A stretch of DNA of 64,000 nt. Source: Lophium mytilinum (taxonomy: Eukaryota). The DNA lies in assembly GCA_010093605.1 (NCBI GenBank), contig MU004196.1, positions 1,448,606-1,512,605 of the forward strand. The letters are read 5' to 3'. Positions 6,598 to 57,163 of the stretch are shown in pieces. The translations under genes were made by a program, and so were the position numbers. Below the pieces are notes generated by a model. It was not told the origin of the DNA, made no database searches, and saw only the letters and a program-made list of their open reading frames with translations. Numbering within the stretch: position 1 is the first letter of the stretch; every line of letters starts with the position of its first letter.

Positions 6598-8952
6598 CTA
6601 GAGTATAACTATCTCAGTCTTCTGTTCCTCCCACTCGAGGCATGGAGGCTGGGCACCGCCCCTCCAAGGACGGATTCCAACATGGACCAGCCCAACACGT
6701 TGATACATATCTTCCCTGCCTGGTTTCTTCCGCAGTAGCAATGCGCATTCGCGCTCTTCCTCGCGAAGATCATGGAACACTATAGCAACCTTCGCTAGAT
6801 ACAGTTCGGTGGACTCCGATATCTGGTCGACTCCCTCGGCGCTCCAGTCGTAGTCGTGGTGGACCATACTATTATCTAATTGGGTATATTCTTCGGCCCC
6901 GGCTTCAGATGGTTGTTGTCGAGGGACAAGATGGTGTCCACCTCGTCCAGCATCTTTCCAAAAATCTCCGGTTCCGATCTGTACACGCCATGTTCGTACT
7001 TCCAAGTGCGCCTTTGCATGAATCCGTCCAGCAAGGGGATCAGGTTCGCCAGTGGGGAGTATATGCTGAGCAGCACAGTCAACGATATCTATCATGGGTC
7101 GAATGGATCCAGGCTCATCCCGAAATGAATAGTAGTCGATGGGGCCATCCACTGAAGCCCAAGACCATGAAGGCCAATAGAAACGATTCGCTGGCCTTGG
7201 AGGGCCTGGTTCAAAATTGTAGGACCGCATCCAGAGTAGATCTTGAATCAGAGTAGGTCCTTCCCAAAGTCCATCTAGATACTGGCCCGTAAAGAAGCGA
7301 CTCATTTGGCGTGCTATCCCACTGAATGCTGGTATTCGATCAGAGTTCTGCGTGAGATCAAGGGCGGTGTATTCGATGACCATCTGCCGCCATTGCACTC
7401 CAACTGTTGTTGCATCATTCCCAGTGACTGCGTTGATTTTGGCGTCGTTGTACCAGAGTTTGTAAAGGCTCGGCGGTTGCGTACCGGTGCATTGGCAGAT
7501 CTTGTGTTCGCTACACTCCCAGAGAAGCTCCCTTTTGGAAAATTTCAACATACGACCGGATAAAAGACGCTCTTGATAACCCCACCCACGAGTTAGAAGA
7601 GGCCAATCTTTAGCTTGGTGGTTATACGTAGGTCCACTGACGTGGGGTATTACCTCTCGGACGTAAACCTTGTTATAGCTTCCATCTTCACCAGCAACAT
7701 TGATTGTCGGCTCTTGATATATACAGCTCTCGGACGATTCCAGAGATGTCTTACGTCGTTCATCATCTTCGTCTTGGTGAGACAGCCGTTCTTGACTGCT
7801 GGCAGCAGAGACAGCCGCAAGCGTGAAAATCGCTTTGGAGTACACCGTGGCCATTCTATGGGCCTCGCGCTCCCAGTCCTCTTCGCTATCCTGGAGAATA
7901 CAGAGGCTATCGATCCATAAATACTGATACCCTAATCGTCTAGTAGTCTGCACCACGTCTGCGAAAAGTGGCGGGAGGCTGCGCAGAGGAATGCTAGTCT
8001 TGCGGTCCAAAAGAGTGTTAGTAGTGGTTGTAAGCGTCTGCTCGTCACGTCCCCAGCAGTGGCTCAAACAAACGTACTGCTCTTTTGTACCGCTCTCCGG
8101 CTCAATCAGCCTAATAGGGGCGTCTATCATTGATTGTGGAGCCCCGAGATCCAAGACTCTGGTGGGTAGGAAGGATGCTTCGTCTATCATGCATTTCTTG
8201 TGCTGAGAAAGACATTGATTGATCCATTTCCGAGCATCATCAAGGCTCTCTTCGGAAATTCCGGATAGTGGCACGCAGTCACCCTCTCCAATTGCTGACC
8301 AAGGCGTTGAATGACCTGCGATACGATCAGCCACATAGTGAACAGATCAGTAAAGAAAGAAGATGGTAGGTTAGAACTTCGGACCATGTTCAACGAAGAA
8401 ATCATAGAAGGTCGGACCCGACACTCCGATCCTCAAGGCCCTCGTTTGCGAGGCGGAGGGAGGGATTCCCCACAATGATTTTTCGTCCTTTACGAGCAGT
8501 GAGTTCCACGCAGCGAGTCCATCATAGACCAATTTACAACTTAGACATCCTCTTTCTGCGGCTGCTCGCACGTCCGACGATGTGCAATTGATGTATCTCG
8601 TTGAATTTGTGAGGTAGTCGGAGTGATGGCCCCCGAAGATTTTCCCATTCTTCCAGTCTAAGTCCAGACAATATGGGCAATGCGCAAATGTTCTCCCCGG
8701 CGCTGGTTTGGATACAGAATCTGAGAATTCTGTTGAATCGTCTTGAAATATTTGATGATCGAATTGATCTTTGCGACGGCGCAACCGGTCTTCTCTTGCG
8801 ACGACACCACCAGAGGCGAGGTCGCGCAAAGAGATCAATGGTTCACGGGGGTCCATCTCGATGAGCGTCACCTTCTTTAAAGAGTAGGTCGAGGGTGGTA
8901 CTGGAACGTGATGGATGGAGATGCGTGTGCTGTGGTTTTGACGCGAGGACAT
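6598..8952 (-). CDS. HET (heterokaryon incompatibility) domain protein, 2 exons
   Basis: HET motifs 'LPTRVLDLG', 'YVCLSHCWG', 'YLWIDSLCILQD..DW', 'RGWGYQERLLS', 'PSWSWASV'; ORFs 8371-8964 and 6598-8334 are joined by an intron at about 8315-8386; N-terminal CxxC...GCxxC. Confidence 0.88.
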
Positions 8953-19061: not shown

Positions 19062-19990
19062 TCATTTCCCCACACCGTTCTTCCCACTCTCCCAATTCCT
19101 CTTCACAACATCCATCCCCATCATCTTCCCCAACAACCCCCCCAACAACTCATCCGTCCAAGCCAAAGGTATCCATTCGGCCACCGTTCTCACTACCAAC
19201 GCGTTATGACCCCTCCAGATCCGGTTGGGCCTCCCAAAGAACCAGCCCTTATCCAACAGATCCGCCACCACCCCCCCGCCCACCTTTCCGCATCCATCGC
19301 GTGCGCCATCGGCGCAGACCCCGACATCGCCTGCTCCACTCTCTCTCTCGCAACCTGGTAGATACTCTCCCCTGGCAACTTCGGCGCCCCGCCACCGGTC
19401 TGATTATCGTAGAACGGCGTTCTCACAGACCCGGTACGTAAATCCACGACGCGGATGCCAAATGGCTTGAGCTCGAGCCGAAGCGTATCGCTGATCATCG
19501 CGAGTGCCGCTTTGCTTGCGTTATACAGGCCCTGTATCGGCACCGGCGACACTGCCGCGATGGAGGTCTGGTTCACGACCGTTGCTTCGCCTCTTTGGCC
19601 CGCACTCTTTAGTAGTAAAGGGGCGAAGGCCTGTGTGACAGCGAGCACGGACCAAACATTCAAATCAAAGAACTCGCGGCCTTTCTGCAGGTCTGCGTCT
19701 AGGAGGGGGATGCTGTACCCGCCGCCGGCGTTGTTGACGAGCATGTCGAGGGTGCCGCCGGTGAGAGCGGACACCTGGGCTAATGCGGCGGCGCTGGAGG
19801 TCGAGGAAAGCACGTCGAGGGGGATGTGGGTGATGCCGAGCGCGGTGAGGTGGGTTACTTTGCTGGGGTTGCGGGCGGCAGCGAAGACACGATGGCCGCG
19901 GGCGTGAAAGGCGAGGGCGAGGGAGGAGCCGAGGCCACCGATAGAGGTGCCGGTTATGAGGACTGTGAGGGGGTTGGCGTTTTTGGGCAT
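19062..19990 (-). CDS. Short-chain dehydrogenase/reductase (Ayr1-like) with an apparent 1-nt frameshift in a G7 run
   Basis: 'VLITGTSIGGLG', 'LVNNAG', YxxxK 'YNASK', 'LRLELKPFGIRVV'; the C-terminus continues in another frame after the run at 19271-19277. Confidence 0.85.
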
Positions 19991-21242
19991 GGTTTGAAGA
20001 GTCTGCTTTGGTTGCACTCGAGGAGGGGTAAAGAGAAAAAATTTAAGATTCGCAGTGGAAGGATTGACTGGTTTTTTGATAAGAGAAATCGAACGTGAAT
20101 TGAAGAGATTGAAAACTAGAAGTTTTTGATGTACTCTATTGATTGACGAATGATTCTGATCGATGTGGTGGGTATGAATGGGTCAGGTGAGGGTTGAATT
20201 GGTATGTTGAATCAACTCTCAGGCCACCCATCTTTATATACCCCTTCTACCGATGATCCTGGGGGCTTTACCACAACTTCATCGTCATCTCATCTTCAGT
20301 CATCGAAGGATTCATGCATTTGGCTGTCGGGCGGAGAACCCGCCGACACGACTTATAACGCATCTCCGCCGGAAAACGTCCTTTACGAAAGTCGACATCT
20401 CAATACGGCGCCAAGCGAAGAAGGAACATTGAGCTGCTGACTTTTCCCAATTCGTGGCTTTGTAACAGCGTGTGTAAGCGGGGCGCTAGCTGTCTATGGA
20501 CGACACGCAATGCTAAGCGCCATCGGAGGAGAGTTCGTCCGCGTGAGGCTGTAGGAGCAACTCCGAGGAGGTTGGTTAGCGATGGAAAGGTACCACATTT
20601 CTGACTGTCAGAAAGCCTTGGTATGCCTCTGGTAATGACCATGACAGAAAGTCACCGAGTTCTTGTTTCAAGACCTGGCGAAGATAGATCTGTCGCGATT
20701 GATCGTAATGCTGAGGCCAAGTAGTGAGGTAAAAACGTCTTTGCCGTTGATGTCCTCGAGTACTGCGTGGAGAAATATGCCTGGAGAGCGCCGGCAGCCA
20801 TTAGACGCGGATCAATTGTTTCGAAGGTATAAAAGGAGAGGCTGGTGTTCTGAGCTTCTTGGTGAGAGAGGAGATGTGCGCAAGGGTAAAGCTGATGCCT
20901 CAAGGATCACGTGAATAGTCTTCACCATCAACCACGGAGATTCAGACTTTGCCCAATGCCGAGAAGATGGAGGGCTAAATGATGATTTGGAGAGAAAAGA
21001 TGACGGAGGATCTGAAATCGCAGAGTTTTGAACATAATTTTAGGTTCGAACAGAGGGTAATCTGGAAGTGGTTAGCGCCGGTCCCCCCGCCTGAGGCTCA
21101 GCGCTTCAGCCTTCACGATACCGACTTCTTCACACATTCATGGATAACTGTCTCTTCTTTGCATCCTTTCCACAGTACTTATAGCGTTGATGCATTGCAT
21201 GTTATCCTCCTGTTTCTATGCCACGCGCCCCTCCCTGTTGCT

Positions 21243-24200
21243 ATGGCCCCGACGTCAGATCTCGTAAGGGACTCGCGGCTGAGGACGCGGTTTCACTCAG
21301 GCGGCTATACACATCACACCTACTACGTCTCCGGGATTACTGCTCGGCAACGCACTGTGAGAAGAGAAGAACGATGGCAACGATGTGCCTCTCTTGGCTC
21401 GGGTGCTTTCGGAATGGTGTGGCTCGAGAAGTTGGTATCGGATGAGGAAGCGAAGGACCGGGCCGTAAAAGAGATCCGAAAGAACTCACATCGATCAAAT
21501 ACTATAGACTACAGCCGAGAGTTAGAAGCTATTGCCAAGTTTTCTCACGAAAAGTACGAGCGTTGCTTCGTGCGTTCCTTCGGCTGGTACGAAAGTGGAG
21601 AAAGCGTCTTCATCGCCATGGAGTACTTCCCGTACGGCGATCTTAATGAGTACATCTCTAGTCCGTTGCCAGAATCGGAAGTCCAGCAAATCACGTTTCA
21701 AATCTTGGAAGGAGTTGCGTTCATGCATGAGAATGGCTTCGCTCATCGCGACTTGAAGCCGACAGTAAGGCGTCCTCTCGTAACAATGATCTCCCTTTAC
21801 TCATCAATGGTGGAATACAGAACATCCTCGTGAAGTCAAGGGGCCCAGACTGGTGGGTTAAGATTGGTGATTTTGGTATCAGTAAACGCGCCGAAGAGGG
21901 ATTGACTGCTTTGCGAACCTTGAACGGCACCCTTGGATTTATGGCCCCTGAGATGCTCGTACAACTCGGTCTTCTTGACATGGAGAACCTGGCTGTTAGC
22001 GATCGGTATACCGTCGCCGTTGATATCTGGTCATTGGGAGAAATCACATTTCGTGCCTTGACCGGAGAATCACCGTTTCCAATTCGGCATCTAGGCCCTT
22101 ACGCCAAGGGAAAGACGAATTTTCCTGTCGAAGTCTTGCAGTCACACAACGTCAGCACTAATGGCTGCAATTTTGTCAAGTCTCTCATGGCTCCATTACC
22201 GAGAGATCGACTAACAGCTAAAGACGCTATTGCACATGATTGGCTTGAGCCACAGCGGCCATCTTCTGCAAGATCATCTTTGGAAATTCAAAGGTAGCAC
22301 CTTTTCCCTCCCTCTTCCTCTTTGTGAGCCGCAATGCTGATAGCCTCACCTTATTGGTAGTTCGGAGCACTTCTTTCTTGATGGTTCCACTTCCCACGGC
22401 CAAGACATCACAGAAGCCTCAGCAGCTTGGAGTGATGTAACCAGCCCAGGACCCACAGTAGCCCCAGTTGCTAGCTTCGAGAACAACGCTGCCTTGGAGC
22501 CCGAAGCACCTCGTGAAACGTCCATTGAAGAGCCGCCAGCACTTCCTGAGGTCCTCGTTCAAGAGACCTCTGGTGTAGTGGGATCGCATTCTTCCGGAGA
22601 CCCAGGTACGCTTTCAGATCTGGTATCACGTGTTGAAGAAACCACTCAAGCCACGGCCCCCATAATCAAACCTCAAGATACACGCGAACAGGTTGTTCAC
22701 AATTCAGGGAACGATGCTACAATCTTAACCCCATACGATCGTAAGAATACCTGAAATTGTTGAGTACCACGCCGTCAAACGCTCACATTTTTCAGACCTC
22801 GAGAATTCTATCACCACCTCCAACAGAGACAAGCATGTGCCAGCGATTAGAGACACCCCTAATCCGGACAAAGAAGAAACTACTATTCTTCACGTCGTTG
22901 CGCATGAACCTTTGCCCGAATCCTCACTTCCAGGTCCGGTTCTCAGACAAGCCAAATCAGATAACACCTATAAGCCAAGAAAACCAAATAAACTCAAAAG
23001 ATATGAGCGAGTCAAACCTGTTACTTGGAGCGATGAGGATGAGTCTGCAAGCAAAGAAATTGAAACCATTATCAGTCCTGAACCCAAAAAGAAGGTTCGA
23101 ACGACGCGGTTTGGGGAATACGAATTAGGACAGACCATTAGCGAGGAAGAGGGGGTAAAGGTGAAAATGGCTTTCCATTCCCAAACCGGAATGCGATACG
23201 TCATTCGGCGCTATCATCGACGCTTCAGGGAATTCCCCAGATCGGAAAGGGTGAAGATCATTCGCGAAGTTGATATCCAAAGAGATCTAGGCCACCCAAA
23301 CGTCCAGCGCTTCCACGAATTGGTTGAGACCGAGATGCACATAGGCCTGGTTCTGGAATACCCTTCTGGAGGCGAACTCTTTGAATACGTCTTGAACCAC
23401 AGATACCTTAGAGACAAACCGGCTCGTAGGTTGTTTGCACAATTGATTTCTGCTGTAGGTTATTTGCACTTGAAAGGGGTTGTGCATCGTAACTTGAAAC
23501 TCGAAACGGTACAGCTCGATAGGTACCTGAACATCATCGTCACTTGTTTCGATCTGGCAAAGACTTTCGACCCTACGAATACGACTAGGCTGCAAGAGGT
23601 GTCTGAGTACAGCTTACCAGTACGCGATCTCAAAGATATTGACAACAATGCAAGGTTCGGGGGCGACCTTATGCGTACATCTTATACGTCTTGTGGATCT
23701 CCTTGCTACGCCGCGCCAGAGTTGGTCGTATCAGATAGACTGTACACAGGTCGAAAAGCAGATATATGGAGTTGCGGAGTTATATTGGTAGGCCCACGCC
23801 GTATCAACCTTGTTCGTCCAGTCAATGTTGCTCACATAGATACAGTACGCAATGCTGGCTGGACATCTACCATTCGACGACGATCCAGCAAATCCCGACG
23901 GCGACAACATCAACCTTTTGTACAAGTACATTGTATCAACGCCTGTAACTTTCCCTGAGTATGTAACTCCTCACGCCAGGGACCTCCTTCGACGAATTCT
24001 GGTGCCGGACCCGAGTAAACGTAGCGATATGTACGAAATTGCGCGACATAGTTGGCTGAGCGAGTATGCTCACGTTGTTTCTCACATAACGGACAAAAAC
24101 ACACCGAAAGGTATTATAGGCACGACGATCCCGTCCCGTGCAGGTAAGAAGATGCCCGGTATGTACCGTTCCGTACCCTCGCAAGGTATTTATGCTAATC

Positions 24201-25838
24201 GATACACATAGAGGCTGGCTCTACACCTGCTCCACTCCCATCATACCCAGACTCTGCCAATTCTGCCAGGAATGCGCATAGTGCTGCTACTTTAGCCCAT
24301 CGACCATCCACGAAGGCTGCACCCCTAGGAAGCTCGAATGGATTGGGGTCTCCAGCTATGGAAGCGGCTCGAATCCAGCATGACAAGTCAATTCCGAGGT
24401 CAATGTACACCGAGCATACTCCCATTGATATGGAAACTAATGAGGCAAATCACCAAAATGCGCTTCGCGCTTCAGCATTATTAATGGCGCAGAAAATGTA
24501 CAATACTCAACAGAAGCACATCAACAATGCTAAAGCCGAAAGAGCTGCTTCGCATGGACAATCAGATAAGGACATGAAAGAACAAGAGATGCAGATCATC
24601 CACGCGCAACAAGCAGCACAAAGACTTGCCGCAGAGCATCTGGCGAGAATCCCAGTTGACAACAAGGCTGCGTATCGCAACTACTGGGCTACGAGTATAA
24701 GCGACGCTCCAAACTCTCCATGCGCGGGAGAAGGCATAGGCACGACGATCCCGTCCCGTAAAGGTCAGAAGATGCCCGGTATATACTGTGCCGTACCCTC
24801 GCAAGGTATTTATGCTAATCAATACACATAGAGGAAACAGCGGAGAGAGATGATACAACACCCAAGGTCTCAAAAAGGCGATCGGTCCAACCCGAGTATG
24901 TTGATGCGCCGCCAAGAGATACGCGAAAACGACCAGTAGTAGACGACATCATGTTCGAGTCGGAAGACGATTTGGCGCCGCTTAAGCGCTGGATCATCCC
25001 GAAGCTTGAAGGAGTGTGAGTTCTCCTACGGCGGACTATATAGAAACGTACTAACTAGATATACAGCTCAGATGCACATTCTGAGATCTTGGCCGACTAC
25101 ATTCTCGCTCTTGTCCGCAGCAGTGGCAGCGACGAGTACATCCGTAACAGCTGTCTTGACAAATTGGGCACCTTCCTCCATAGTAGTAAGACGCTCGCCG
25201 AAGGCACTAGTCGTGAGAGGGAAGCTAACCTAGCCTTAGATACCGTTGGATTCGTTGACGAGATGCTCACGGTTGTTCGCGAGAAATCTTATCGGCCTGA
25301 TTACGTTCCTCCTTCAACAGAATTTACTGCTGCACCGAGATCGAAATCGAACCCATATCAACGTGCGAGGGTGTATAACCAAGAAAAATTTACTGCTGCA
25401 CCGATATCGCAGCCATATTATGACGAGGATAACAAGGAGAATGGGCGCCCAGGACTGCTGGAGAGGAGGGTTAGCAGGAGAGTCGTGCCGGGCCTCCCGA
25501 GGCCGTTGACGTTCAAGAGGATGAACTCCGAGAAGAGGGATAGGCTTTTACCGGTAGACACGGGCAGTGAGGAACGCAGGGCGACGTCTATGGACATGAG
25601 GGGCAGTGAGCCGAAGACACTAACCCCGCCGGCCGTGTCAATTCCATCGCGCTCGATGCCTGAGATTCAGAGTCCGTTCCAGGAAGCACCAGGGAGACCT
25701 ATTGGAGGAGGAGATGATCACAAAAATCCGTCAAAGCAAAGAACAGGCCCGGATGACGGATCTAGCGGTACTGCGAGGAAACTCATGGACTTCTTCCGTC
25801 GCGGAGGGAAAAATGCACCAGATGAATTCAATTCTTAG
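21243..25838 (+). CDS. Tandem kinase-pseudokinase protein with integrated Eis1/Seg1-like, PWI-like and CorA-like segments (about 1372 aa, 9 exons)
   Basis: Exons 21243-21764, 21821-22293, 22361-22740, 22796-23787, 23846-24143, 24212-24763, 24832-25015, 25067-25185, 25240-25838 join in frame via GT-AG introns (4119 nt). Kinase 1 has GSGAFG/AVK/HRDLKP/DFG/APE; kinase 2 is Kin4-like but degenerate. Confidence 0.8.
24115..24834 (+). repeat. Direct duplication of about 100 bp (exon end + whole 68-nt intron) at about 24115-24214 and 24735-24834
   Basis: ataggcacgacgatcccgtcccgt..aggt(a/c)agaagatgcccggtat..ccgtaccctcgcaaggtatttatgctaatc(g/a)atacacatagagg occurs twice. Confidence 0.9.
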
Positions 25839-26153: not shown

Positions 26154-26370
26154 CACTATGCTTCGATCGGCAGGCTGCAATGAAGCCAACAGCGCTGCGG
26201 CGTCTCGAGAAATGGGAATCCCTGTACACCGCGCCTCAAAACAACTAGGCACCAGCCAATCACACCCCTGCACCAACATCGCCCGATCTACGGCACAGCC
26301 TTATGCATATAAAAAGGTCTAAAACCACCGAATTACCTAATCCTCTTTTCTCCTTCAAAACTCCGCATTC

Positions 26371-28095
26371 ATGAAACCCATCATCCCTCTACACTTTATC
26401 CTTCTCCTTTCTTCCTTAAACCTCCTCGCCATGGCCGCAAACCCCCAAACCCCGATCCTGGACCCCGACCACGACCCCAACCCCGACACCCACGACCCGT
26501 ACGAAGGCCTTCCGCCCCTCGCCGCCAACATGACCTGGACCGCATTCCCCTTCAACGACCTCTGGCTCTCTGACACCGCGTGGTACGACTCGCTCGGAAA
26601 TTCTCAAGTCGTCGTACGCCGCATCTTCTCCTCGTTTTCCAAAAGCGAGCAAGTCGCCGCCGCCCTCACCCTCTTCGAAGAGTTCCCAGCTCGCGGCCGC
26701 GACATCATGTTCGATGCCGCGGTCAAGGGCAAAGCGTGGGTGATCTCCGCGCTGCTCGCTGCGGGCGTCACGCCGCAGCCTGCCCCGGGCACAGAAGACG
26801 ACGTGACGCTGGTGTGTCTGCATGCGGCGGCGCATAATGGGCAGCTAGAGGCCGTGAAGGTGATTGTGGAGGAAGGGGGTGCGGAGGTGGATGCGAAGGA
26901 TGAGCTGGGGGGGACGGCGCTGATGCGGGCGTGTTTTGGGGGGCAGGTGGAGGTGGTGGCGTGGTTGCTGGAGCGGGGGGCGGATGCGGGGCGGCGCCAG
27001 GATGATTCGGAGGAGCGGACGCCTGGGACGGGGGCGTTGGAGTTTGCGGCAGGGAAGGGTTGTGTGGAGTGTGTTAAGCTACTTTTGGAGTGGAGGAAGA
27101 GCGGAGGTGCGGTGGGTCGGGGGGGCGCGGAGGTGACGCCCCTGGCATTGGAGGCCGGGGCGCACTCGGGGAGCTTGGAGATGGTGAGGTTGTTGGTCGG
27201 GGAGAGGGGATGGCCGACGGACGAGGTTGATGAGAGGGGGGTTTGGAAAGGAGAGAGGCTGAGTGGGGAGCAGCGGGGCGAGGTCCTGCAGATGCTGACG
27301 CGGGTGACGACCAACGTTGATCTTCTCGAGTTCCTCGTGAGCTACCTGGCCAAACCGGATGCTAGTGGAAACTTCGAATACCTCGACTTGCCGCAGGATG
27401 TCAGAGAGAAAATCCTGGACCTCTTGTTTGGCATAACGAAGAACACCGAGGTTGTTAAACTCTTTTGGAACGTCACATTCAGCTCTCCGGAGCTGACGAC
27501 GATTGAATACGATGGGCAGCAGATTCCGAAAATCGAGTACATCAACGATATGATCCACGAAGCCGCCAAGACGGACACTGTTGAGACCGCCAAGTTCTTT
27601 TTCGCAATGCCAGGCGCCGATGTCAATACCCCCGGGCTCAAGAAAGTCGGCCACCTATACCGAGCAGCTATCGATGAGAAGCTAGATATGGTCCGCTACC
27701 TCCTAGAGAACCACAAGCCAGACCTCCACCAAGGGAACGGGCTCTACGCAAACGGAGGAACCGCGCTCTTTGGCGCTGTGCTGTCAGGCAACGCGGAAAT
27801 TGTGAAGCTGATTCTTCAGCATGGTGGTCCGCTCGAGTCTCCGATCCACGAAAGCATCAAATCGAAGGAGCCGAAGAAAGTCGTCGTGAAGTGTGTCCAA
27901 ACTTTTAGGGCGCCGGTGACGATGGAAGTTCATCCTGGAGATGATTCCTTGCCGACAGAGCAAGGCACGAAGTTTGTTGTGTTAGAGTTGGATGAGAACG
28001 ATGCCGAGTGGTTGGATAAAGTGGAGATCCGCAAGTCGGATGAAGAATTGAAGAAAGATGATAGAGGGGAACGAGAATTGAAGCCGCGAGGATAG
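26371..28095 (+). CDS. Ankyrin-repeat protein (possible hydrophobic N-terminal leader)
   Basis: 574-aa ORF; 'CLHAAAHNGQLEAVK', 'GGTALMRAC..G..EVVAWLL', 'GGTALFGAVLSGNAEIVKLIL'. Confidence 0.88.
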   Translation: MKPIIPLHFILLLSSLNLLAMAANPQTPILDPDHDPNPDTHDPYEGLPPLAANMTWTAFPFNDLWLSDTAWYDSLGNSQVVVRRIFSSFSKSEQVAAALTLFEEFPARGRDIMFDAAVKGKAWVISALLAAGVTPQPAPGTEDDVTLVCLHAAAHNGQLEAVKVIVEEGGAEVDAKDELGGTALMRACFGGQVEVVAWLLERGADAGRRQDDSEERTPGTGALEFAAGKGCVECVKLLLEWRKSGGAVGRGGAEVTPLALEAGAHSGSLEMVRLLVGERGWPTDEVDERGVWKGERLSGEQRGEVLQMLTRVTTNVDLLEFLVSYLAKPDASGNFEYLDLPQDVREKILDLLFGITKNTEVVKLFWNVTFSSPELTTIEYDGQQIPKIEYINDMIHEAAKTDTVETAKFFFAMPGADVNTPGLKKVGHLYRAAIDEKLDMVRYLLENHKPDLHQGNGLYANGGTALFGAVLSGNAEIVKLILQHGGPLESPIHESIKSKEPKKVVVKCVQTFRAPVTMEVHPGDDSLPTEQGTKFVVLELDENDAEWLDKVEIRKSDEELKKDDRGERELKPRG

Positions 28096-35046: not shown

Positions 35047-35681
35047 CGGACGGAAATGTGGTAATGAGTATATGAAGCACTCCGGATAATGGCAATGTTG
35101 GTCGAGCAGAAGCGCTTGAAATCGCCTAACATCGTACTCTCTGAACTTTTGAATCGCGTCAAGATTTACGAAAATGCACTGAAGAACCTCGAATAGAGGT
35201 GAGCAGGTATGCGCAGACTTCTATCCAGGCACTGTAGGCATCCTCTTTAGATTTAGCGTGGTCGAGTGACGATGAACTCGTAGCTAGCAAGCTCCGTTGA
35301 GTATAAAGTGGCAATCAAACACCGTCCGAGGTGGCGCGGAGGGATTTCAGCTTTGTCTAAGATGGACGTTTTAATGTTTTCGATATATTCTGTAGTACCC
35401 TTGCAGCCTTGTACGAAGTACGCACAGACTAGTGCTGGTCCCAAGCGGGGAACATGTTCAGCCAAGAACATCTCAGCCTTTCCACTGGGCAACCTCCAGA
35501 GGGCTGGAAGGCTGAGCGGCTGCCTGCCAGCCTGATTGCGATGCCGCTGGATTATTTTCTTCTGCTTCCCTTCGCGCACCTAGCTATCAATCCGTACAAA
35601 AGCACTTCGCGCTGCTGGACATCCCATACCTTACTACTCACAGGTGTCGTGAAGTAGACCGCACTCTTGCTTGAAAGAACA

Positions 35682-38394
35682 ATGGACTTCCTATGGGCCC
35701 TCCTGAGCCTCTGCATCTTCCTCGCCTCATCAGCCGTGCTCCGCAGAGCGCTAGAAAAGAGGATCCTATACCGATACTCTCCACTCCGGCCAGAACCTAG
35801 CAGCATCCGCCTACTACGCCTTCTACCGCACGCCGACGAGACCGCCGTCATTCAATGCGAGCTCTTCGACTACTCGCTACAAAGCTCAAGCCAACGAACG
35901 CACCAGTATGAAGCCCTGTCTTATGTATGGGGTAGTCCGGAGGGGAAGTTGCCTATCATGATAGGCGGATGTGCGTTCGACGTTACGGTTAATCTCCATG
36001 CGGCGCTTTTAAGGATGAGGAATCATGCTATGGAGCGAGTGTTGTGGGTAGATGCGATTTGCATTGATCAGGACAATCTAAAAGAGAAGGAGGATCAGAT
36101 TCAGTTCATGGCAGAGATTTTTGGACAGGCGAGACAGGTTGTTGTTTGGCTTGGAGAGGCGGCAGAGGATAGTGATTTGGCGCTTGAGCAGATACGCGTT
36201 ATTGGGAGCAGAGTGTCTGGAGATTATCCCTTAGAGCTAGCGGATACGTGGAGCGACAACGACGAGTCAGGAGATTCTCTAGACGACGACGGAGGGTCGG
36301 TAGATCCTCTAAACGACGACCCAATGCAGCAAGCGATTCTTGCGCTGTTGGAACGGCCGTGGTTTCGGCGCATTTGGGTAAGAGTATATATATTCCGCAA
36401 AGCTCGTACAGTCTGCTAAAGGGTTAAATTAGATACTTCAGGAGGTTGCCGCAGCTCGACACATCTTGGTCATGTGTGGTGCCGCAGAGATCGACGGACA
36501 CGGCTTCTGCTTGGGCGTGGATTTGCTGGAGGGCATCTTCGGAACCCGCGCAGACTTACATAGTCTGATCCGTTCGGTGACTTACTTGATGAAGGGGGCG
36601 ATATTCAGGCCTGTTATGAGCAAGGCAAGCAGTACTTCGCGAGCCATATGTCCACTAGGCGAGCTGATGGATATGTACCATTCGCACGAGGCTACCAAGC
36701 GCCATGATAAGGTGTATGCGTTGCTTGGTATGAGCTCTGATGATCACAGCAAAGCAAATCTATCGCCAAACTACGGAGTTCCATGGGAGGACCTCTTGCA
36801 GCGACTAGTCAAGTTTCTTCTCCCTGGGACGATTTCCGTGGAGACTTGGGGCGATCAGGGGATCGCTTCAATCAGGATTAAGGGCTGCATGCTGGGTTAT
36901 GTGTCCTCTACAGAAAGGAGTGTTATTTCTGATGGCAGAAGGAGTGTAGAGGTAGTTTGCAAGAACATATCGGGAGAACTTGGAGATATCAAAGTGTCAA
37001 AGGCCAACTGGAATCTCAAACTCTCGGCAACACCCGTTCAAAAAGGAGATCTCATCTGCCTTCTTCAGGGAGCTTCAAAGCCTACTATCATAAGAGTGTG
37101 TAAAGACTGTTTTACCATCATCATCATGATTACAGTCTCTCCTCCGGAAATCATACAAAGTAAGTGGAACGAGTTTGATGCCAATTGGCCAAAGAATTTG
37201 GAGTCCAAAAAATTGTCCGCATGCGATTTTCTCCTCGTTTGGGACTGGGAAACCCCTCTGCTAGGATTGCAAGATCTAGGAAAATCCGATACCTTGATCC
37301 AGACAGATAAGTGGGTATCACAGCCCCCAAATACGATGCTAGAGGGCCACTTGGACCAACTAGCTAGAACATGGAGTGTTGCACGGATATTGGACGACTT
37401 GGGGAAGCAAGAAAAGGCAGAAGAGAGGCTTCAAGAAGTTGCAGAGGGCATTGCAACAGAAATTGGGCAAGAAGGTTTGTATCCACACACATTACTAAAT
37501 TATCAAAGCAAGACGCTGATTTTGAGAATTCCAGATAACAACTACGACGCCGTAAGGAACATAATACGGGAGAGGAATAATATTGATCTATACTTTGGGG
37601 ACAGTCAATACAGAAAGACGATGCTATTAAGAGCGGCAGGAAGCGGGCGCAAGGGTGTTGTTAAGCTTCTGCTTGAGACGGGCAAGGTCAATGTTGATGC
37701 AATGAAGACGGCGCTGCTACGGGCGGCATCTTACGGGCGCGAGACTATTGTGAAGGTGCTGCTTTTGACAGACAAGTTCACCTTCGCTGATGAGGGGCGG
37801 GTGCTGAGAACCGCGGCGTTTTGGGGGCGGGAGGCCGTTATTAAGCTACTGCTTGAGACGAGCGAAGTTAATCTTGATTCTAAGGATAATGAGGGACAGA
37901 CGGCGCTATCACTGGCGGCGAGTTCGGGGCAGACGGCGGTTGTTAAGCTGCTGCTTGAGACAGGCAAGGTTGATATCGANNNNNNNNNNNNNNNNNNNNN
38001 NNNNGGACAGACGGCGCTATCACTGGCGGCGAGTTCGGGGCAGACGGCGGTTGTTAAGCTGCTGCTTGAGACAGGCAAGGTTGATATCGACTTGAAGGAT
38101 AATGACGGACGGACGGCGCTATCATGGGCGGCAGAAAGGGGCCCCGAGGCTGTTGTTAAGCTGCTACTTGGGACCGGCAAAGTTGACGTTAATTCAAAGG
38201 GTACTAATAGGAGGACGGCGCTATTGTTTGCGGTAGAAGGGGTACACACAGCCGTTGTCAAGCTGCTGCTTGAGACAGGTAAGGTTGATGTTGAACTCGA
38301 GGATAATGACGGACGGACGGCGCTAGTTAGGGCGAAAGAGAAGGGACATGAGGCCGTGGTACAGCTGCTGGAGTCGTATCGTAAGCTCTTTTAG
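35682..38394 (+). CDS. HET domain + ankyrin-repeat protein (NLR-like effector-repeat architecture), contains assembly gap
   Basis: HET: 'IRLLRL', 'YEALSYVWG', 'LWVDAICIDQ', 'RPWFRRIW|ILQE' (intron 36379-36432), 'DKVYALLGM'; C-terminal repeats 'GQTALSLAA..G..AVVKLLLETGKVD'. Confidence 0.9.
37980..38004. other. Assembly gap (25 N) within ankyrin repeats
   Basis: Run of n characters. Confidence 0.99.
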
Positions 38395-51527: not shown

Positions 51528-52256
51528 CTATCCTTGAATCCAAGCCCTGCAATTGGGGCATCGAGCCCCTGAAGCACTTGAAGGATGCCCGATCACCGCT
51601 AGTATGCATTTCTCCCCAAAGTAGTGCCCACAGCGAAGCCGAACAGCAACATGATCCTCGTCGTAATGCTCTAAGCAAATAGCGCAGTCATCAACACGTT
51701 TGAAAAGTTCGGCCTGTTGTGTTGGTTCGTTGCCCTCTTTGTCAACGCAGTGGATCAGCAAATGGTCTTCCAATCCCGCAATGACAATCATGTTTCGCCC
51801 TTTATGCTCAAGAACTAAGGTGGGATTGCCCTTGGCGTAGACAACATTCAGATAGTCGTTTCCGTGGGCCCTGGAAGGCGTGATATGAAACACCTCATTT
51901 GATCCCACCCAGGTGTGCTCGAGTAGCGCTCGCATTTCCTCAGTATCAGACTGAGCAAAGCCAACGTCCTTGTCGCCGCGGGCCAACTTGACTTTTGTAG
52001 TCAAGAGGTCCACCCCGTTCAGTGGCGTCACAGGCGGTTCACCGAACCAGAGCCGTGCGGTTACATCCTTACGAATGAAGACCCACACTTGCTGGGGTCG
52101 GCGGGGAGCTCTCCGAACTGTTATGGCGTTGTCTAGGACCCTTTTCGTCTGGAAGCCCACCCGGCCATCCCTAACGTCAGGCAGAGCCACGTTTTGGGTG
52201 CCATGACTGTCTGACATCATGATGTGGCCAGGGCTTTCGCTCATATTCGACGACAT
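51528..52256 (-). CDS. RING finger protein (putative E3 ubiquitin ligase)
   Basis: C-terminal CAICLEHYDEDHVAVRLRCGHYFGEKC...CPNCR. Confidence 0.85.
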   Translation of the reverse strand: MSSNMSESPGHIMMSDSHGTQNVALPDVRDGRVGFQTKRVLDNAITVRRAPRRPQQVWVFIRKDVTARLWFGEPPVTPLNGVDLLTTKVKLARGDKDVGFAQSDTEEMRALLEHTWVGSNEVFHITPSRAHGNDYLNVVYAKGNPTLVLEHKGRNMIVIAGLEDHLLIHCVDKEGNEPTQQAELFKRVDDCAICLEHYDEDHVAVRLRCGHYFGEKCILAVIGHPSSASGARCPNCRAWIQG

Positions 52257-52676
52257 GGTTGGTAGATGAATACACAAGAAAAGCAAACTGGTTTGGATGA
52301 AGGTGTAAAGTTAGAGTGCGAGCTGGGCAAGGAAGGGTTCTTATGCTCTTGAGGTCAAGCACTTGTACTTACTTCACGTACTTACTTCACCCAGCGGCAA
52401 CAGTCTCATTCAAGATCAACAATAACATTGTGCTTACTCGTCGCCCCAGAAGGTGAGGTAGTGGACAGACGAGATCTCGATATTGTTATGACAGAACAAA
52501 AACTTGAGCTCGAATAGTGAGCGGCAAGACCGAAGAAAACAGAATGCTCTACGCTATTCATCGTCTACCATATGAACACACCGGCATTCTTTGAGTTCAG
52601 AGTCCATAGAGTCGGTTACGACTTGGCGAGAATAGTAGACGTCAACTCAAATAATGACAAATACGCCAAGTCTCTC

Positions 52677-53477
52677 CTAGGTCCGTGAATTCTTCGGCCG
52701 TCGAGTGCCCTGGAACATCGGAGTCCGGCAGATAGGACAAAGGCTTGAAGTTGCAGTTTCTACGAGTTCTTTCAGACAATTCTTTCCATAAACGTGTCCG
52801 CATGGAACACGATATGGACGGTGATCTTTATCCCAGTCCTGATAACAAATAGCGCATTGATCTAGCTCAGTAGCAAAATCATCCACCTTAATCTCTCGAG
52901 TCCACTCTAGCGATACATCCCGAGTGTTTTGAGTCCCCGGAACCGGAAGCGAAATCGTTTCACGCAGTTGAATACGATCTTCCGGGCTGACTACAATCAT
53001 GACAGCTGTATCTCTGTACTGGAAGACAACGGTTGGATTGCCAGTGACCAGAATGACCCTCATATGGCCCCATTTATAAACGGGATATGCCCCCAATTGG
53101 GCCTCGGGGTCCAAAATCCAGCCATGGAATATCAGAGAGTCCACTGTATGTGGGTTGTCATGTGCAATGATAACCGGGTCAGACATTGCACTCCCAGGTT
53201 GGCGTGTCATACGAATGCTTGGCTCGCCAGGGCCTGTGCTGACGACTCTTTCCATAGTGAATTCAACTCGTATGTCGGCGTACTTCTCAATCAAGAGCCC
53301 GGCACTACCAAGGTAATGAAGGAACATTCCACGGTCGTCTTCGCCTGGGAGCTCACGGTTCCGAACACTGAGAGCCCTCGAGGTGAGGGTCCGTGTGACG
53401 ATGAAGGCGCGGCCGGGAATGCGGGTTTGCTGAGTTAGTAACTCTAGAGCTGGGCTGGACTCCGCTCGTGGATTCAT
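52677..53477 (-). CDS. RING finger protein (putative E3 ubiquitin ligase)
   Basis: CAICYQDWDKDHRPYRVPCGHVYGKNC...CPICR. Confidence 0.85.
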   Translation of the reverse strand: MNPRAESSPALELLTQQTRIPGRAFIVTRTLTSRALSVRNRELPGEDDRGMFLHYLGSAGLLIEKYADIRVEFTMERVVSTGPGEPSIRMTRQPGSAMSDPVIIAHDNPHTVDSLIFHGWILDPEAQLGAYPVYKWGHMRVILVTGNPTVVFQYRDTAVMIVVSPEDRIQLRETISLPVPGTQNTRDVSLEWTREIKVDDFATELDQCAICYQDWDKDHRPYRVPCGHVYGKNCLKELVETATSSLCPICRTPMFQGTRRPKNSRT

Positions 53478-53905
53478 CCTGAGGGTTTTATGCTTCAAGT
53501 AATATTTATGTCGTTGCCGCGCAAGTCAGATCCTGTGGTGGCGGAAGATGTGTTGACGTCCTTGTTGTGGGGATGAGAGATAAGTTCGAAGAGATGACGA
53601 AGCGGGAGCACTTATATGTGAGAATTGAGGCGACTAGTGAAACGAGAGCTGTCGTTGCAGGTGAATGCTCGAGGAGGTGAGCTAATACTGAAATGACTAC
53701 ACATTCGCTGCCTGCATACTAGACTATGCAACGAACCGTAGGGTGAATAAGAGGTCTCGAGCCACTTGACTAACATGGTTTCCCACTACAAACGAGCACT
53801 AGCGCTAGTGTCGCTATTGATCTGGTAGCCGTAAATCGAAGGCCCTGGAACGATTCAACGGTATCGGAAAGGCTACCTATGAAGGCATAATTAGAGGCAG
53901 GTGTC

Positions 53906-54136
53906 CACGCGGGGCATGAAAAAAGTGGCACACTTACCCACATTCTACCTCCTATGCACCTGTCTGCTGCTGTTGTGGTGCTTCGATGCATTTGAAGAAG
54001 ATACGAATAAGCTGATTACTATTAGCTTTGGTAATCTGAAAACTTATCAAAATACTCCAAGCAGTGGCAGACAGGTGTATATTTGACCGTAAAAGACAGA
54101 TCTTAATGAGTGTGCCTCTTTTTTATGACCAGGGTG
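53906..54136 (-). mobile_element. MITE family B, internally deleted copy in opposite orientation
   Basis: CACGCGGGGCATGAAAAAAGTGGCACACT ... GTGTGCCTCTTTTTTATGACCAGGGTG; flanks GTGTC / GCGTT. Confidence 0.75.
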
Positions 54137-54826
54137 GCGTTAAAACCTGGACATTTCAGGGGATGTATGGACTTATAAGGCCTAAAGATGCGTTTTGTGT
54201 ATGGCGCTCTGCAAATATTAGGCTAGGCTTGAAAGGATGTGAATGCACCACTCGAACAGTTGATGGATTGGAAACTACCAGCCATCATTGCTGGAGATTC
54301 TAGGATTTCAACGAACCGAAAGATTTCATCGTTCTTGTCACATACTACTGAGTTCTAGTTTACAATATCTAGTGCATAATAGAAGGTGGCGGAGATATAT
54401 TCAGAGCTCAAGAAAACATAAGAAATCCTACCGCAGACTGTAAATTGCGTTTTTTTTGCATGGCCAGTAAACGCAGCTACTAAGCCATTAAATCAAATCT
54501 CGGAGAAGGAAGTGGCGGGGCAGGGGCACTGGCTCACGATAGGATCACTAGGTGAAAATCATCACAGTGGCATATAGAAAAGCTCCTTGGGGTAATTGTA
54601 TGTATTGAGATGTCTGAAACATTGCAGTGCACTATACAGAGAAGAAAGGCAACGTAAACTTGAACAGGTGGCTGTTTTCGTCTTTTGCATCCATACGACT
54701 TTTCGTTGAAGCTGGGAACCAATCAGGCAGTCTAGGCTGAGAAATTTGAACTACAGCGCGCATGAATACGGTGACAACCAGGAGAATATCTCCAGCAGTA
54801 TCCTCTGAAATCAAGATCAGGAAACC

Positions 54827-55747
54827 TTAACCTCGAACGGCCTGGCGCTCCTTCTTTTTGAAGAGTTGGACACGGCAGTTCGGGCAAGTGTTGGAGGCAG
54901 CGAACCGGTGATTGAACATGACCGAAAGGCACTCCTCTCCAAAAATATGACCACAAGCATTTAATTTGACCGCGCGGTGGCCAACACCATACTGAGCATC
55001 CTGGCAGATGCTGCACTCGGGAAGATCTTTTTCGTCGGTAGGTTTGGCGAGCTCATCGACATTGGTGCGAGGACCGACGAACTCGAGAGGAACATCCTCC
55101 AAAGCCCCAGTTGGCATTTCCCAGATTTCCTCCTCAGAAGGGGAGTCATCGGGCGTCGCAGCTTGAGCCGCCCGGTGGTTTCCACCGCGAAGTCGACGCC
55201 AAACATTGCTGAAGCGCCGATGTCGAGCATGCTCATTTTGGCCGCTGGTGTCTTGGAGCTCGGTCTCGTCCTCGGGCTCGAGGCATTCCAGAGCGATCAC
55301 GCCATTCGTACGGACGCGGACTGATTGCTCGCCAAACTCAAAGACCGTAGTAGCTGGGCCCTTGGTGACCATACGCTTGTCAGTATCGTTCACGCGCTCA
55401 AGCCGAAAGTCCCGGAGGCCGGCATATGGGTTCCGACCATGGGGGAATTGGAGTCGTTCTCGAGCACGAGTCGCTGGAAGAATTGTCCGAACGTCGCGGG
55501 GGACAGTCGCTTCTCCATACCAACGCTTGACTATGGCTTCGCGGGGAAACAGAATATGGAGATCGCCATGTTGAGCCGCGTCGCCGTCGGCATGGATCAC
55601 AAGATTGCCATACGTGCAAGTACCTTCCACATGGAGATTCTTCATCACTCCACCGGTAAGTGCTTCGGATGGTCGAAGGATGATGTTTGCCGCGGGGGGA
55701 CGAGTGCTGTCGTCGACAACATTAAGAGTAGAAGTAGAAGCCGCCAT
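54827..55747 (-). CDS. RING finger protein with N-terminal array domain
   Basis: CSICQDAQYGVGHRAVKLNACGHIFGEEC...CPNCR; N-terminal 'LHILFPREAIV...GPATTVFEF'. Confidence 0.87.
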   Translation of the reverse strand: MAASTSTLNVVDDSTRPPAANIILRPSEALTGGVMKNLHVEGTCTYGNLVIHADGDAAQHGDLHILFPREAIVKRWYGEATVPRDVRTILPATRARERLQFPHGRNPYAGLRDFRLERVNDTDKRMVTKGPATTVFEFGEQSVRVRTNGVIALECLEPEDETELQDTSGQNEHARHRRFSNVWRRLRGGNHRAAQAATPDDSPSEEEIWEMPTGALEDVPLEFVGPRTNVDELAKPTDEKDLPECSICQDAQYGVGHRAVKLNACGHIFGEECLSVMFNHRFAASNTCPNCRVQLFKKKERQAVRG

Positions 55748-56102
55748 GGTGGAGTCTGTATTAGATACTTGTAAGTTCTGTTGAGGGTACTGGTGTTGGT
55801 GTGATAGAAAAGGATTTGGTGGGTGTGGTGTGCTTGACTGAGGGAAGTGATAATGAGGACGGACACGAGCAGAGAGACCTGGCTTTATGCACTCCTCAGG
55901 GGGTGAAAGTGCCCCCATAAGGTGAATTGAAGCGTCACAATGTCTTTCTCGGAGCAGTAACCATGCTGAGAGCACCTGCAGTGAACGTCATGGTGCATCT
56001 TTCCGATTGTACAATGTATAGTCGGACATTTTACGGGTGGCAGGTAAGATGAGGTAGCTTCTACACTATACGTTGTGCAGACGTGTGATTGAGACGAAGA
56101 GC

Positions 56103-56332
56103 TACAGTGACAAGCCACAAGTCTGGTCACACTGGTACGCCACTGATTGGGGTACCCCAACAAAGTTTTGAGGACTTAAAGGTGATTTTAACCTTCAAGC
56201 AGTGTGTATTAGACTGCCTCTTAAGCACTTGCCTGCTCAGCAGCCAGGCTACCCGAACAGTGGTGTTGAGTTGGCAAATTTGAGCCGAGATATAATGAGT
56301 CCATGTGCCCAGATTTGTGGCCTAGGACTGTG
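56103..56332 (+). mobile_element. MITE family A copy (well preserved)
   Basis: TACAGTGACAAGCCACAAGTCTGGTCACAC ... GTGCCCAGATTTGTGGCCTAGGACTGTG. Confidence 0.85.
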
Positions 56333-56617
56333 AGAACGTTGACGTGTACGTAGCATGAAGCTTAAGGCATGTAGAACTGCATTGCGAAGACGAAATATAC
56401 GGGGATAGGCCGCAAGAGAAGACAAAAGCAAAGGCAAATGGTCATAGGGAACTTGCACAAGGTACGTGAAGTGGAACGAGAAGAAGATTCAATTTAGCTA
56501 AGTCTATGCTTGCGAACTGTCCACATGAGCTTGGAGACAATTTAGAGCTCGAGATATGGGAGAAGATTGAGACGGGGAAGACCACTCGACGCATAGCGAT
56601 TCTCTCTTGAGACCCCT

Positions 56618-57163
56618 CTATGGCGAGGGAGGTGAGAAGAAAGTGTTGGGCCAGTCGTGGGGGAAAGGCGGCGATGATGAGGATGCGGAAGATGGCAACA
56701 CCGGCCGAGATTCGCGCTCCGCGAAAAGTTCGACGCGGCAAAATGGGCATCGGTTCAACACTGGATCGGTGGTACTTGCCATCAGCTTCAAGCACTCATC
56801 GCCGAACACGTGCTTGCATGCCTTTAGAACCATCGGGAGATGGCCATTGCCATAGTCTTCCAGACAGATGCTGCATCTATCGAGGCCGTTGGCCACCTCT
56901 TCTGGTGAACAAGATCTGGCGAAGGTGTTGATATCGATGGGTTCATCCACATACTCCCGCTCTACGTCTTCCAGTTCCTCGGGAACCTCATCTTCGTCAT
57001 CTGTAAGGGACGGAGCGGGACCCTGCATATCAAGGGTGATCTCGCTGTGAGGGCCAAAACGATCGATGTCATCACACCTCATTTCATACTCGTCCGAGAT
57101 CTCGGAATTGGGGCCTAACACGGTGACGATAGCTGAGGATCGGGGCTCAATGTTTCCTTCCAT
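56618..57163 (-). CDS. RING finger protein (short N-terminus)
   Basis: CSICLEDYGNGHLPMVLKACKHVFGDEC...CPFCR. Confidence 0.85.
   Translation of the reverse strand: MEGNIEPRSSAIVTVLGPNSEISDEYEMRCDDIDRFGPHSEITLDMQGPAPSLTDDEDEVPEELEDVEREYVDEPIDINTFARSCSPEEVANGLDRCSICLEDYGNGHLPMVLKACKHVFGDECLKLMASTTDPVLNRCPFCRVELFAERESRPVLPSSASSSSPPFPHDWPNTFFSPPSP

Follow-up and report, generated by a model that had tools for sequence, protein, structure and literature searches.

A transcribed chimeric gene of Lophium mytilinum joining sequences of a kinase, a Kin4-like pseudokinase and fragments of other genes from the same genome

Introduction

In a 64,000-nt stretch of Lophium mytilinum DNA (contig MU004196.1; hereafter the window, within which all positions are numbered), the forward strand between 21243 and 25838 carries two kinase-like sequences followed by short segments resembling unrelated proteins, and the question raised by this locus is whether the pieces form one gene, where they came from and what their product could do. 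A first-pass annotation, made from the letters alone, had read the locus as a single tandem kinase-pseudokinase gene with integrated fragments of housekeeping proteins. The analysis reported here identifies it as one real transcribed chimeric gene of a Dothideomycete, with a frame of 1377 amino acids (aa) in nine exons, and its structure and stepwise origin at the DNA level, as read from the sequence, appear well supported. In plants, proteins that combine a kinase, a pseudokinase and integrated foreign domains have recently come to be recognised as a class of immune receptor, and the locus is a concrete transcribed example from a fungus, with datable stepwise integrations and identifiable donors, that is small enough to dissect.

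Gene structure and expression

Stop-to-stop open reading frames (ORFs) were taken from the forward strand between 20979 and 25838, and the Pfam Pkinase domain was matched on the ORFs 21243-21833, 21731-22297, 22729-23958 and 23840-24211. When canonical GT..AG introns were tried, one continuous frame was obtained, running from 21243 to 25838 and holding 1377 codons without any internal stop. The coding region, exons and introns are as follows:

21243-25838, + strand, whole coding region (9 exons, 1377 aa, stop codon at 25836-25838)
21243-21764, 21821-22293 and 22361-22740, + strand, exons 1 to 3 of the spliced model
22796-23787, 23846-24158 and 24212-24763, + strand, exons 4 to 6 of the spliced model
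24832-25015, 25067-25185 and 25240-25838, + strand, exons 7 to 9 of the spliced model
21765-21820, 22294-22360, 22741-22795 and 23788-23845, + strand, introns 1 to 4 (GT..AG joints in contigs of run X1, 0 mismatches)
24159-24211, 24764-24831, 25016-25066 and 25186-25239, + strand, introns 5 to 8 (GT..AG joints in contigs of run X1, 0 mismatches)

The expression data were contigs from a single public run, X1, which is recorded as 'RNA?' and was taken to be spliced RNA because its contigs skip exactly the predicted introns. A contig of 5107 nt matches the window with 0 mismatches over 20900-21764, 21821-22291, 22359-22740, 22796-23786, 23845-24157 and 24211 plus 51 nt, and connects the first kinase (kinase 1, K1), a linker, the second kinase (kinase 2, K2) and the beginning of exon 6, which is related to the protein Eis1. 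A second contig, of 694 nt, covers 24401-24761, 24832-25015, 25067-25185 and 25240 onwards and connects exons 6, 7, 8 and 9. Every one of the eight junctions, for which the first-pass annotation had proposed an RNA check, was found GT..AG-spliced in the X1 contigs. The same annotation had described seven ORFs splicing into a frame of about 1372 aa; the single spliceable frame stands, but it has nine exons and 1377 aa, and the earlier intron set was incomplete, having overlooked the 54-nt in-frame intron 25186-25239 that is seen as a spliced joint. Two kinase-type domains lie in one frame and are joined by a spliced contig, which is the architecture of a tandem kinase in the plant sense.

The pieces that make up this frame are:

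21243-22293, + strand, K1, aa 1-332, assigned by Pfam Pkinase on both exons and by motifs
22294-22360, + strand, intron 2, 67 nt, removed in the 5107-nt contig
22361-23103, + strand, linker, aa 333-561, some 230 codons free of stops and of Met
23104-24139, + strand, K2, aa 562 to about 890, including intron 4, placed by tblastn with residues 252-577 of P0117
24214-24735, + strand, Eis1 fragment corresponding to P0121 residues 233-419, placed by homologue search and donor contig
24835-24944, + strand, Kin4 tail remnant with KRRSVQPEYV, placed by weak local matches to Kin4 residues of about 550-665 (E 0.002-0.35)
24945-25313, + strand, RBM26-like (PWI + CCCH + RRM) fragment, placed by loose contig ends at 24945 and 25313 and by the homologues P0232, P0253 and P0255
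25314-25424, + strand, segment aa 1203-1240, with a weak, not significant likeness to the Kin4 tail
25425-25714, + strand, third donor piece, from the N-terminal region (residues of about 60-190) of a conserved fungal protein of about 900-1100 aa that has a protein kinase domain, placed by homologues and a contig of depth 471
25715-25838, + strand, Kin4 extreme C-terminus SSGTARKLMDFFRR and stop, placed by matches to Kin4 C-ends (E 5e-5 to 1e-4) and to P0391 (E 5e-7)

Kinase 1

The Pfam Pkinase domain was matched on the two exons of K1 with E values of 3.7e-22 and 7.4e-21. The claim of the first-pass annotation that K1 keeps its catalytic motifs was borne out, the Gly loop (GSGAFG), the VAIK Lys (AVKEI), the alphaC Glu (ELEAI), HRD (HRDLKPTN), DFG and APE all being present. 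Judged by these motifs, K1 is predicted to be a catalytically intact CAMK-like kinase with the sequence features of an active enzyme, and the solved kinases nearest to it are RAD53, CHK2, CDPK, CaMK1 and DAPK.

Kinase 2

Exon 4 matched Pfam Pkinase with an E value of 8.2e-31, and the closest relatives of K2 are Kin4 kinases. Kin4, a CAMKL spindle-position checkpoint kinase of Pezizomycotina, appears to be the parent of both K2 and the tail remnants, and shares with them its C-lobe and its C-terminal end. Compared with the ordinary Kin4 listed for L. mytilinum (P0117), GEGEFG has become SEEEGV, VAIK has become YVIR, HRDLKLEN has become HRNLKLET and DFG has become CFD; five features have been lost, namely the Gly loop, the beta3 Lys (now Arg), the HRD Asp, the catalytic Asn (now Thr) and the DFG Asp. 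The earlier description of K2 as Kin4-like with its catalytic motifs gone is confirmed by the Kin4 matches and by SEEEGV, YVIR, HRN..T and CFD, and K2 is predicted to be a Kin4-derived pseudokinase that is catalytically dead. Besides these five catalytic residues or motifs, K2 differs from Kin4 in its very long branch and in lacking some 400 tail residues.

K2 is 59 % identical to P0117 over 380 residues, with an overall identity to its parent of 59-65 %, and the identity is unevenly spread: 4 of 28 residues are identical over aa 584-612, versus 94 of 107 (88 %) over aa 749-858 in the C-lobe. Of the 249 columns that do not vary among three Kin4 sequences, 61 are altered in K2. In a quick tree with 36 Kin4 orthologues the end branch of K2 measured 7.16 against a median of 0.044, and K2 received no supported placement among the 36 sequences, its branch being too long for the quick method. 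With this very long branch, and with the ordinary Kin4 P0117 in the same species, K2 is a paralogue and not an orthologue of Kin4. No donor contig at least 90 % alike lies on K2 in X1, where the depth equals that of the locus's own contig, and K2 therefore appears to be an old or fast-evolving copy in which the C-lobe has been kept.

A search with exon 4 among proteins of 579-2000 aa returned only Kin4, at 49-58 % identity, and no annotated protein of at least 579 aa that holds K2 was found in that size range. One candidate for an orthologous tandem kinase, P0001 (Fusarium odoratissimum 'KIN4', 1527 aa, 433 bits), was rejected as an ordinary Kin4 that repeats exactly its own N-terminal residues of about 1-430, including the start of the kinase, a repeat that inflated its score. 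The internal repeat of P0001 is probably an artefact of assembly or of the gene model.

Intron 2 and the linker

Intron 2 opens with G|GTAG, so that a TAG at 22295-22297 overlaps the 5' splice site; if the intron is retained, the product is a K1-only protein of 332 aa ending at that TAG. Retention versus splicing of intron 2 could in this way determine whether a free kinase or the 1377-aa fusion is made. The annotated end of the K1 orthologue of Mytilinidion resinicola (P0273), ...LEIQR, corresponds to the start of intron 2 here, and the orthologue of Lepidopterella palustris (P0394) ends in leucine-rich residues that were taken as read-through of the intron.

Beyond intron 2 the frame has no Met over aa 333-582, the next Met after aa 332 being aa 583, inside K2, and a separate downstream gene is hard to place because about 250 codons without a stop or a Met follow the intron. 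The first 33 or so residues of the linker align with P0391, a family member of K1 from Ilyonectria; beyond them a local search gave no match, and Pfam gave nothing on the linker or on any of the tail pieces, searched one by one, at E <= 10.

Composition of the tail

Stretches like the Kin4 tail occur at aa 858-894, 1079-1115, perhaps 1203-1240, and 1337-1377, two of the four being only weakly alike. The C-terminal ...MDFFRR end of Kin4 is retained, and local matches agree with the first-pass annotation that Kin4-like tail motifs stand between foreign segments.

The first foreign segment derives from Eis1. All 36 matches of exon 6 carry PF12757, and the best is the Eis1 listed for L. mytilinum (P0121), with 78 % identity over Eis1 residues 233-403. 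The Eis1 piece has a 13-codon deletion and its last 16 codons are in a shifted frame, and it is Eis1-derived across all 521 nt. The Eis1 origin proposed in the first-pass annotation thus stands for exon 6, but the piece itself gives no PF12757 match (E <= 10); it lies upstream of the Pfam Eisosome1 domain (462-582 of P0121), and comes from the Eis1 protein and not from its named domain. The donor contig in X1 joins the locus at 24214, and the 30 letters that precede this point in it encode AVSESARRKR, which is Eis1 (P0121) residues 223-232.

The RBM26-like piece starts 6 nt before the ATG of its donor (24951) and comprises about 86 codons and two introns (25016-25066 and 25186-25239). Among five homologues checked, PF01480 was found at residues 9-74 in three, and RRM and/or CCCH domains in all five. 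PF01480 gave no match on single exons or on the read-through ORF of the window, the PWI region being split over three exons; the PWI-like origin suggested earlier holds through the homologues, three of the five carrying PF01480 at the matched place. Within the adjoining segment 25314-25424 a 23-nt direct repeat, 96 % identical and with a spacing of 66 nt, was seen at 25321-25343 and 25387-25409, and may be a scar of a junction.

The third donor piece contains the basic motif RRVVPGLPRPLTFKRMNSEKR and is about 96 % identical in DNA to the transcript of its donor, whose contig departs after 25714 into DSNIPSG, like the orthologue P0158. The first-pass annotation had called this segment CorA N-terminal-like, an identification that has to be dropped: among 42 proteins matching the piece, 29 have a protein kinase domain downstream, 8 belong to no family, 5 have other domains and none has CorA. 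The homologues of the third donor are conserved fungal proteins of 750-1350 aa with the kinase domain at about 310-630. The N-terminal module of this donor (...VPGLPRPLTFKRM.SEKR...) was also seen in other fungi or metagenomes (P0177, P0224, P0247, P0250 and P0178), where its neighbours are WW, MIT and aspartyl-protease domains or a different kinase that follows it; it behaves as a portable unit.

Transcripts of the donors occur in the same run X1, where the loose ends at 24214, 24945, 25313 and 25714 continue like the donor proteins. Together with P0121 (Eis1) and P0117 (Kin4) in the same species, they agree with the expectation of the first-pass annotation that intact donors exist elsewhere, and the pieces derive from host proteins encoded elsewhere in the genome, as integrated decoys do.

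Origin of the pieces and constraint

A direct repeat flanks the Eis1 insert exactly, with one copy on each side:

24116-24214, + strand, copy 1 of a 99-nt direct repeat, with 43 nt of Kin4-derived exon, the 53-nt intron 5 and 3 nt of the next exon
24736-24834, + strand, second copy of this repeat, matching the first at 93 % identity and supplying intron 6

Both repeat introns are now spliced separately, each from its own donor site (GTATGT at 24159, GTCAGA at 24764), the first being seen as the spliced joint 24157 to 24211, and intron 6 appears from its sequence to be an intron gained by duplication. A copy-and-paste or template-switch event, duplicating a 99-nt stretch with a whole intron in it, may have brought in the Eis1 piece. 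Because a whole intron was duplicated, the first donor site could have been joined to the second acceptor, so that the insert would initially have been spliced out; later it would have been taken up as an exon. Copying appears to have taken place at the level of DNA and not of mRNA, because the RBM26-like PWI piece kept its introns. A repeat search found no flanking duplication or inverted repeat at the other two inserts, and showed no transposon ends or terminal inverted repeats around the inserts.

Divergence differs from piece to piece, with 13 listed sites in 290 nt for the third donor piece, 85 % aligned protein identity for the Eis1 piece and 59-65 % for K2, and because of these differences the sequence suggests that the pieces were integrated serially, at different times. 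The comparison of donor with copy took in only sites remote from contig ends, in contigs that share at least 90 % identity. Within the coding sequence 11 of 14 such differences are synonymous and lie at third positions, a share that chance would put at about 24-33 %. For this excess P = 0.0007 if one third is expected at third positions, and P = 0.014 if the expectation is 0.46, the estimated synonymous share if only the donor were constrained. The third piece, with about 11 synonymous versus 2 replacement changes, appears by an informal estimate to have far fewer replacements than neutral drift should give, and the Eis1 piece looks less constrained. The open frame of 1377 codons despite the divergence of K2, and the spared C-lobe of K2, argue for constraint. 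A signature of repeat-induced point mutation (RIP) was not evident among the 20 listed differences, 17 of which are transitions in both directions (7 of RIP type in the window copy and 10 in the donors).

The kinase 1 family

The family of K1 is widespread in Pezizomycotina and its members are joined to many different partner domains. In a hand count from precomputed Pfam lists of the best 120 K1 homologues, 47 carried an extra non-kinase domain, of 14 kinds: TPR (12), WD40 (11), ENTH (4), RhoGAP (4), PF26118 (3), ANK, VPS13_C, KA1 and SH3 (2 each), and chitin synthase, alpha-kinase, Ras, WW and ricin-type lectin (1 each). WD40, TPR or ANK repeats were present in 25 of these 120. Several partners are incomplete pieces, as seen when 24 members were rescanned (Ras 41-160 of 162, VPS13_C 20-98 of 114, ENTH 3-95 of 124). 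Among 122 family members in which the kinase was located, 76 have a C-terminal tail of at least 80 aa, 18 have an N-terminal extension of at least 80 aa and 29 show neither feature.

One member, P0391 (Ilyonectria sp., 677 aa), consists of a K1-family kinase followed by the last 165 or so residues of Kin4; its tail is 47 % identical to the C-terminal end of a Fusarium Kin4 (E 1e-34) and includes ...SSGTANRIMDFFRRRGKARGG. By its sequence P0391 appears to be a second, independent fusion of K1 with a Kin4 tail, in a distant class (Sordariomycete). The family member P0315, named 'Magnesium transporter', was also considered and rejected, its tail having no significant likeness to the tail of the Lophium gene.

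Interpretation and alternatives

The interpretation that we narrowly favour is that of a chimeric gene with K1 as its output and with non-catalytic mimic modules made of fragments of its own genome. K1 would be the sole output, and K2 and the fragments would be mimic modules keeping parental surfaces or short motifs, namely the C-lobe and C-terminal end of Kin4, the Eis1 segment, the PWI fold and the basic RRVVPGLPRPLTFKRMNSEKR motif. Such modules would bind whatever binds or modifies the parent proteins, and K1 would thereby be placed there or have its activity gated; the ligands could be either regulators of the cell itself or foreign molecules.

Several observations weigh against this interpretation. 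In the public annotation the locus appears as two proteins, a 323-aa partial K1 (P0393, listed for Lophium mytilinum as 'kinase-like protein, partial' and 100 % identical to model residues 1-323) and a 191-aa NCBI protein from the last exon (P0157, identical to that exon from its first Met), and the K1 orthologues of Mytilinidion resinicola (332 aa) and Lepidopterella palustris (353 aa) are annotated as K1 only. An orthologue of the mosaic was not found in protein and metagenome searches, which did not address fungal genomes directly; a search of representative proteins with the last exons gave the 191-aa protein of the window itself as the sole close match, and in a metagenome scan with that protein 9 of 166 candidate stretches were confirmed. 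These nine loci, tried as orthologues of the mosaic, match only residues of about 46-160, the region of the third donor, and were rejected as orthologues of that donor. The contigs cannot prove that single RNA molecules cover the entire gene, and the locus's own pieces among the contigs listed miss 24263-24400 and 25268-25591, both within exons, where the assembly graph would break owing to the paralogous donor transcripts. Finally, the synonymous excess rests on only 14 differences and carries an ascertainment bias, and the 15 % protein divergence of the Eis1 piece, with its deletion and frame-shifted end, fits relaxed constraint.

Some of these points would equally suit a young chimeric gene without function, in which a variable region gathered gene fragments behind a kinase and the open frame persists by luck and survivorship. 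The mosaic seems lineage-specific, the Eis1 piece is damaged and carries 24 replacements in 158 aligned residues, the linker and 25314-25424 have no recognisable relatives, and the public annotation does not model a single gene. Against this stand the 1377 stop-free codons and eight spliced introns retained while K2 diverged by about 36 % in protein from a domain whose conservation among orthologues exceeds 90 %, the focusing of that divergence on the ATP site with the C-lobe kept, the synonymous bias between donors and copies, and the arrival of all three insertions in the frame and orientation of their donors; absence of function is considered unlikely. It is very improbable that separate genes or an assembly error explain the locus, with K1 ending at the TAG at 22297 and the remainder a decaying Kin4 pseudogene. 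That TAG falls right at the donor site, the annotated ends of K1 orthologues and of one paralogue fall there too, and a contig over two genes is no proof of one molecule, the 5107-nt contig itself running 2034 nt upstream of 20900 into the neighbouring gene. However, a mismatch-free contig shows canonical (GT..AG) splicing of intron 2, beyond which the frame runs on through the long stretch that offers neither stop nor Met; every DNA junction shown, including Kin4 to Eis1 and Eis1 to Kin4 to PWI, recurs in independent RNA-derived contigs; and the linker begins with residues homologous to the tail of the distant family member P0391.

A more specific version, and one that we regard as quite unlikely, is an integrated-decoy immune sensor, in which the fragments would be baits mimicking the targets of effectors, toxins or viral proteins, and attack on a bait would free K1 to trigger defence or cell death. 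Its appeal as a hypothesis comes from the parallel with plant tandem kinases carrying integrated domains (PMC13478195, PMC8761531), from the integrated kinase decoys proposed for fungal NOD-like receptors (NLRs) (PMC12258605), and from the behaviour of the K1 family, which is joined to WD40, TPR or ANK repeats and to truncated housekeeping domains and has produced an independent Kin4-tail fusion in P0391. The recent and serial integration of the fragments would also suit it, as would the nearby HET genes (6598-8346 and 35658-36419) and ankyrin genes (26341-28095 and 36433-38394). Opposed to it are the lack of any known effector, executor partner or polymorphism data, the absence of a NOD domain from the gene and the absence of an evident common theme among the donors, and ordinary domain shuffling for targeting or regulation fits the same data.

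The broader proposition that the K1 family comprises fungal NOD-less kinase fusion sensors, which arose in convergence with the tandem kinase and kinase fusion proteins of plant immunity, is likewise quite unlikely. If it were true, the conserved CAMK-type head would be the trigger, and the changing partners, which include repeat domains, a dead Kin4 copy and fresh truncated copies from cortical, trafficking and RNA-binding proteins of the fungus itself, would be recognition modules for antagonists or incompatible strains; the Lophium gene would then be a snapshot of a receptor stacking baits singly, inserted into or beside introns and then exonised.

Comparison with known systems

Examples of plant tandem kinases are Rpg1, WTK1/Yr15, WTK4 with an HMA-like integrated domain, Lr9/WTK6-vWA and Sr43. 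The Lophium gene resembles the plant proteins in joining a kinase, a pseudokinase and integrated unrelated pieces in one polypeptide. It differs in belonging to another kingdom, with independent origins; in having its predicted active kinase at the N-terminus and of CAMK type; in having as pseudokinase a copy of a housekeeping cell-cycle kinase; and in having pieces that are smaller than domains and less than 10 % diverged in DNA from donors in its own genome. It also has no known immune role or NLR partner. In the plant proteins the integrated unrelated pieces are proposed or shown to be recognition modules (PMC13478195, PMC8761531, PMC10260399, PMC10260397).

In fungi, NLRs with integrated CHK2/PRD-4-like kinase domains have been proposed to carry putative decoys (PMC12258605). 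As in those NLRs, a copy of a housekeeping kinase appears to stand inside a protein of a variable gene family of the nonself-recognition type; unlike them, the Lophium protein has no NOD/NACHT or repeat domain, and the carrier is itself a kinase, with RAD53/CHK2 as its nearest solved relatives. In the portions of the literature consulted, kinase-pseudokinase genes with integrated domains were found described only in plants, alongside the kinase-decoy proposal for fungal NLRs.

Regulation of an active kinase in cis by a degenerate kinase domain occurs in GCN2 and JAK, and GCN2 is also regulated by a HisRS-like domain, the descendant of a housekeeping enzyme that serves as a ligand sensor. Those proteins are ancient and conserved and built of whole domains, whereas the Lophium gene is lineage-specific and built of recent fragments. 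Young chimeric genes made from duplicated fragments include the Pack-MULE chimeras of plants and jingwei of Drosophila. Like them the Lophium gene is a mosaic of fragments from several parents transcribed as one unit, but it has kept the frame of the donors and has one insert flanked by an intron-containing 99-nt duplication.

The locus makes it possible to test whether mimic or bait modules occur in fungi outside NLRs, how a gene fragment becomes an exon (here maybe through duplication of a whole intron around the insert), and whether the large K1 family with its many fusion partners is a sensor family. Public annotation of such loci is fragmented, and similar genes are therefore probably undercounted.

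Genomic neighbourhood

The first-pass annotation had placed the gene among HET and ankyrin genes, and both kinds were found in the window. The neighbouring features are:

6598-8346, - strand, HET gene, from the ORF scan
19193-20182, - strand, short-chain dehydrogenase gene, upstream of the chimeric gene
26341-28095, + strand, ankyrin gene, 500 nt downstream of the chimeric gene
35658-36419, + strand, HET ORF, followed by an ankyrin-repeat ORF at 36433-38394
51528-52310, 52677-53525, 54827-55987, 56618-57265 and 60819-61715, - strand, RING-finger ORFs with zf-RING_2

The downstream ankyrin gene was considered as a tail of the K1-family type and rejected, showing only generic similarity of 33-36 % to the ANK tails of P0346 and P0352, and no NOD gene was seen among the 30 window ORFs scanned. 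The HET ORF at 35658-36419 and the ankyrin ORF at 36433-38394 are probably one HET-ANK gene. The RING-finger ORFs, at least five in number, are paralogues arrayed over 51528-61715 on the - strand, and zf-RING_2 stands at the end of each.

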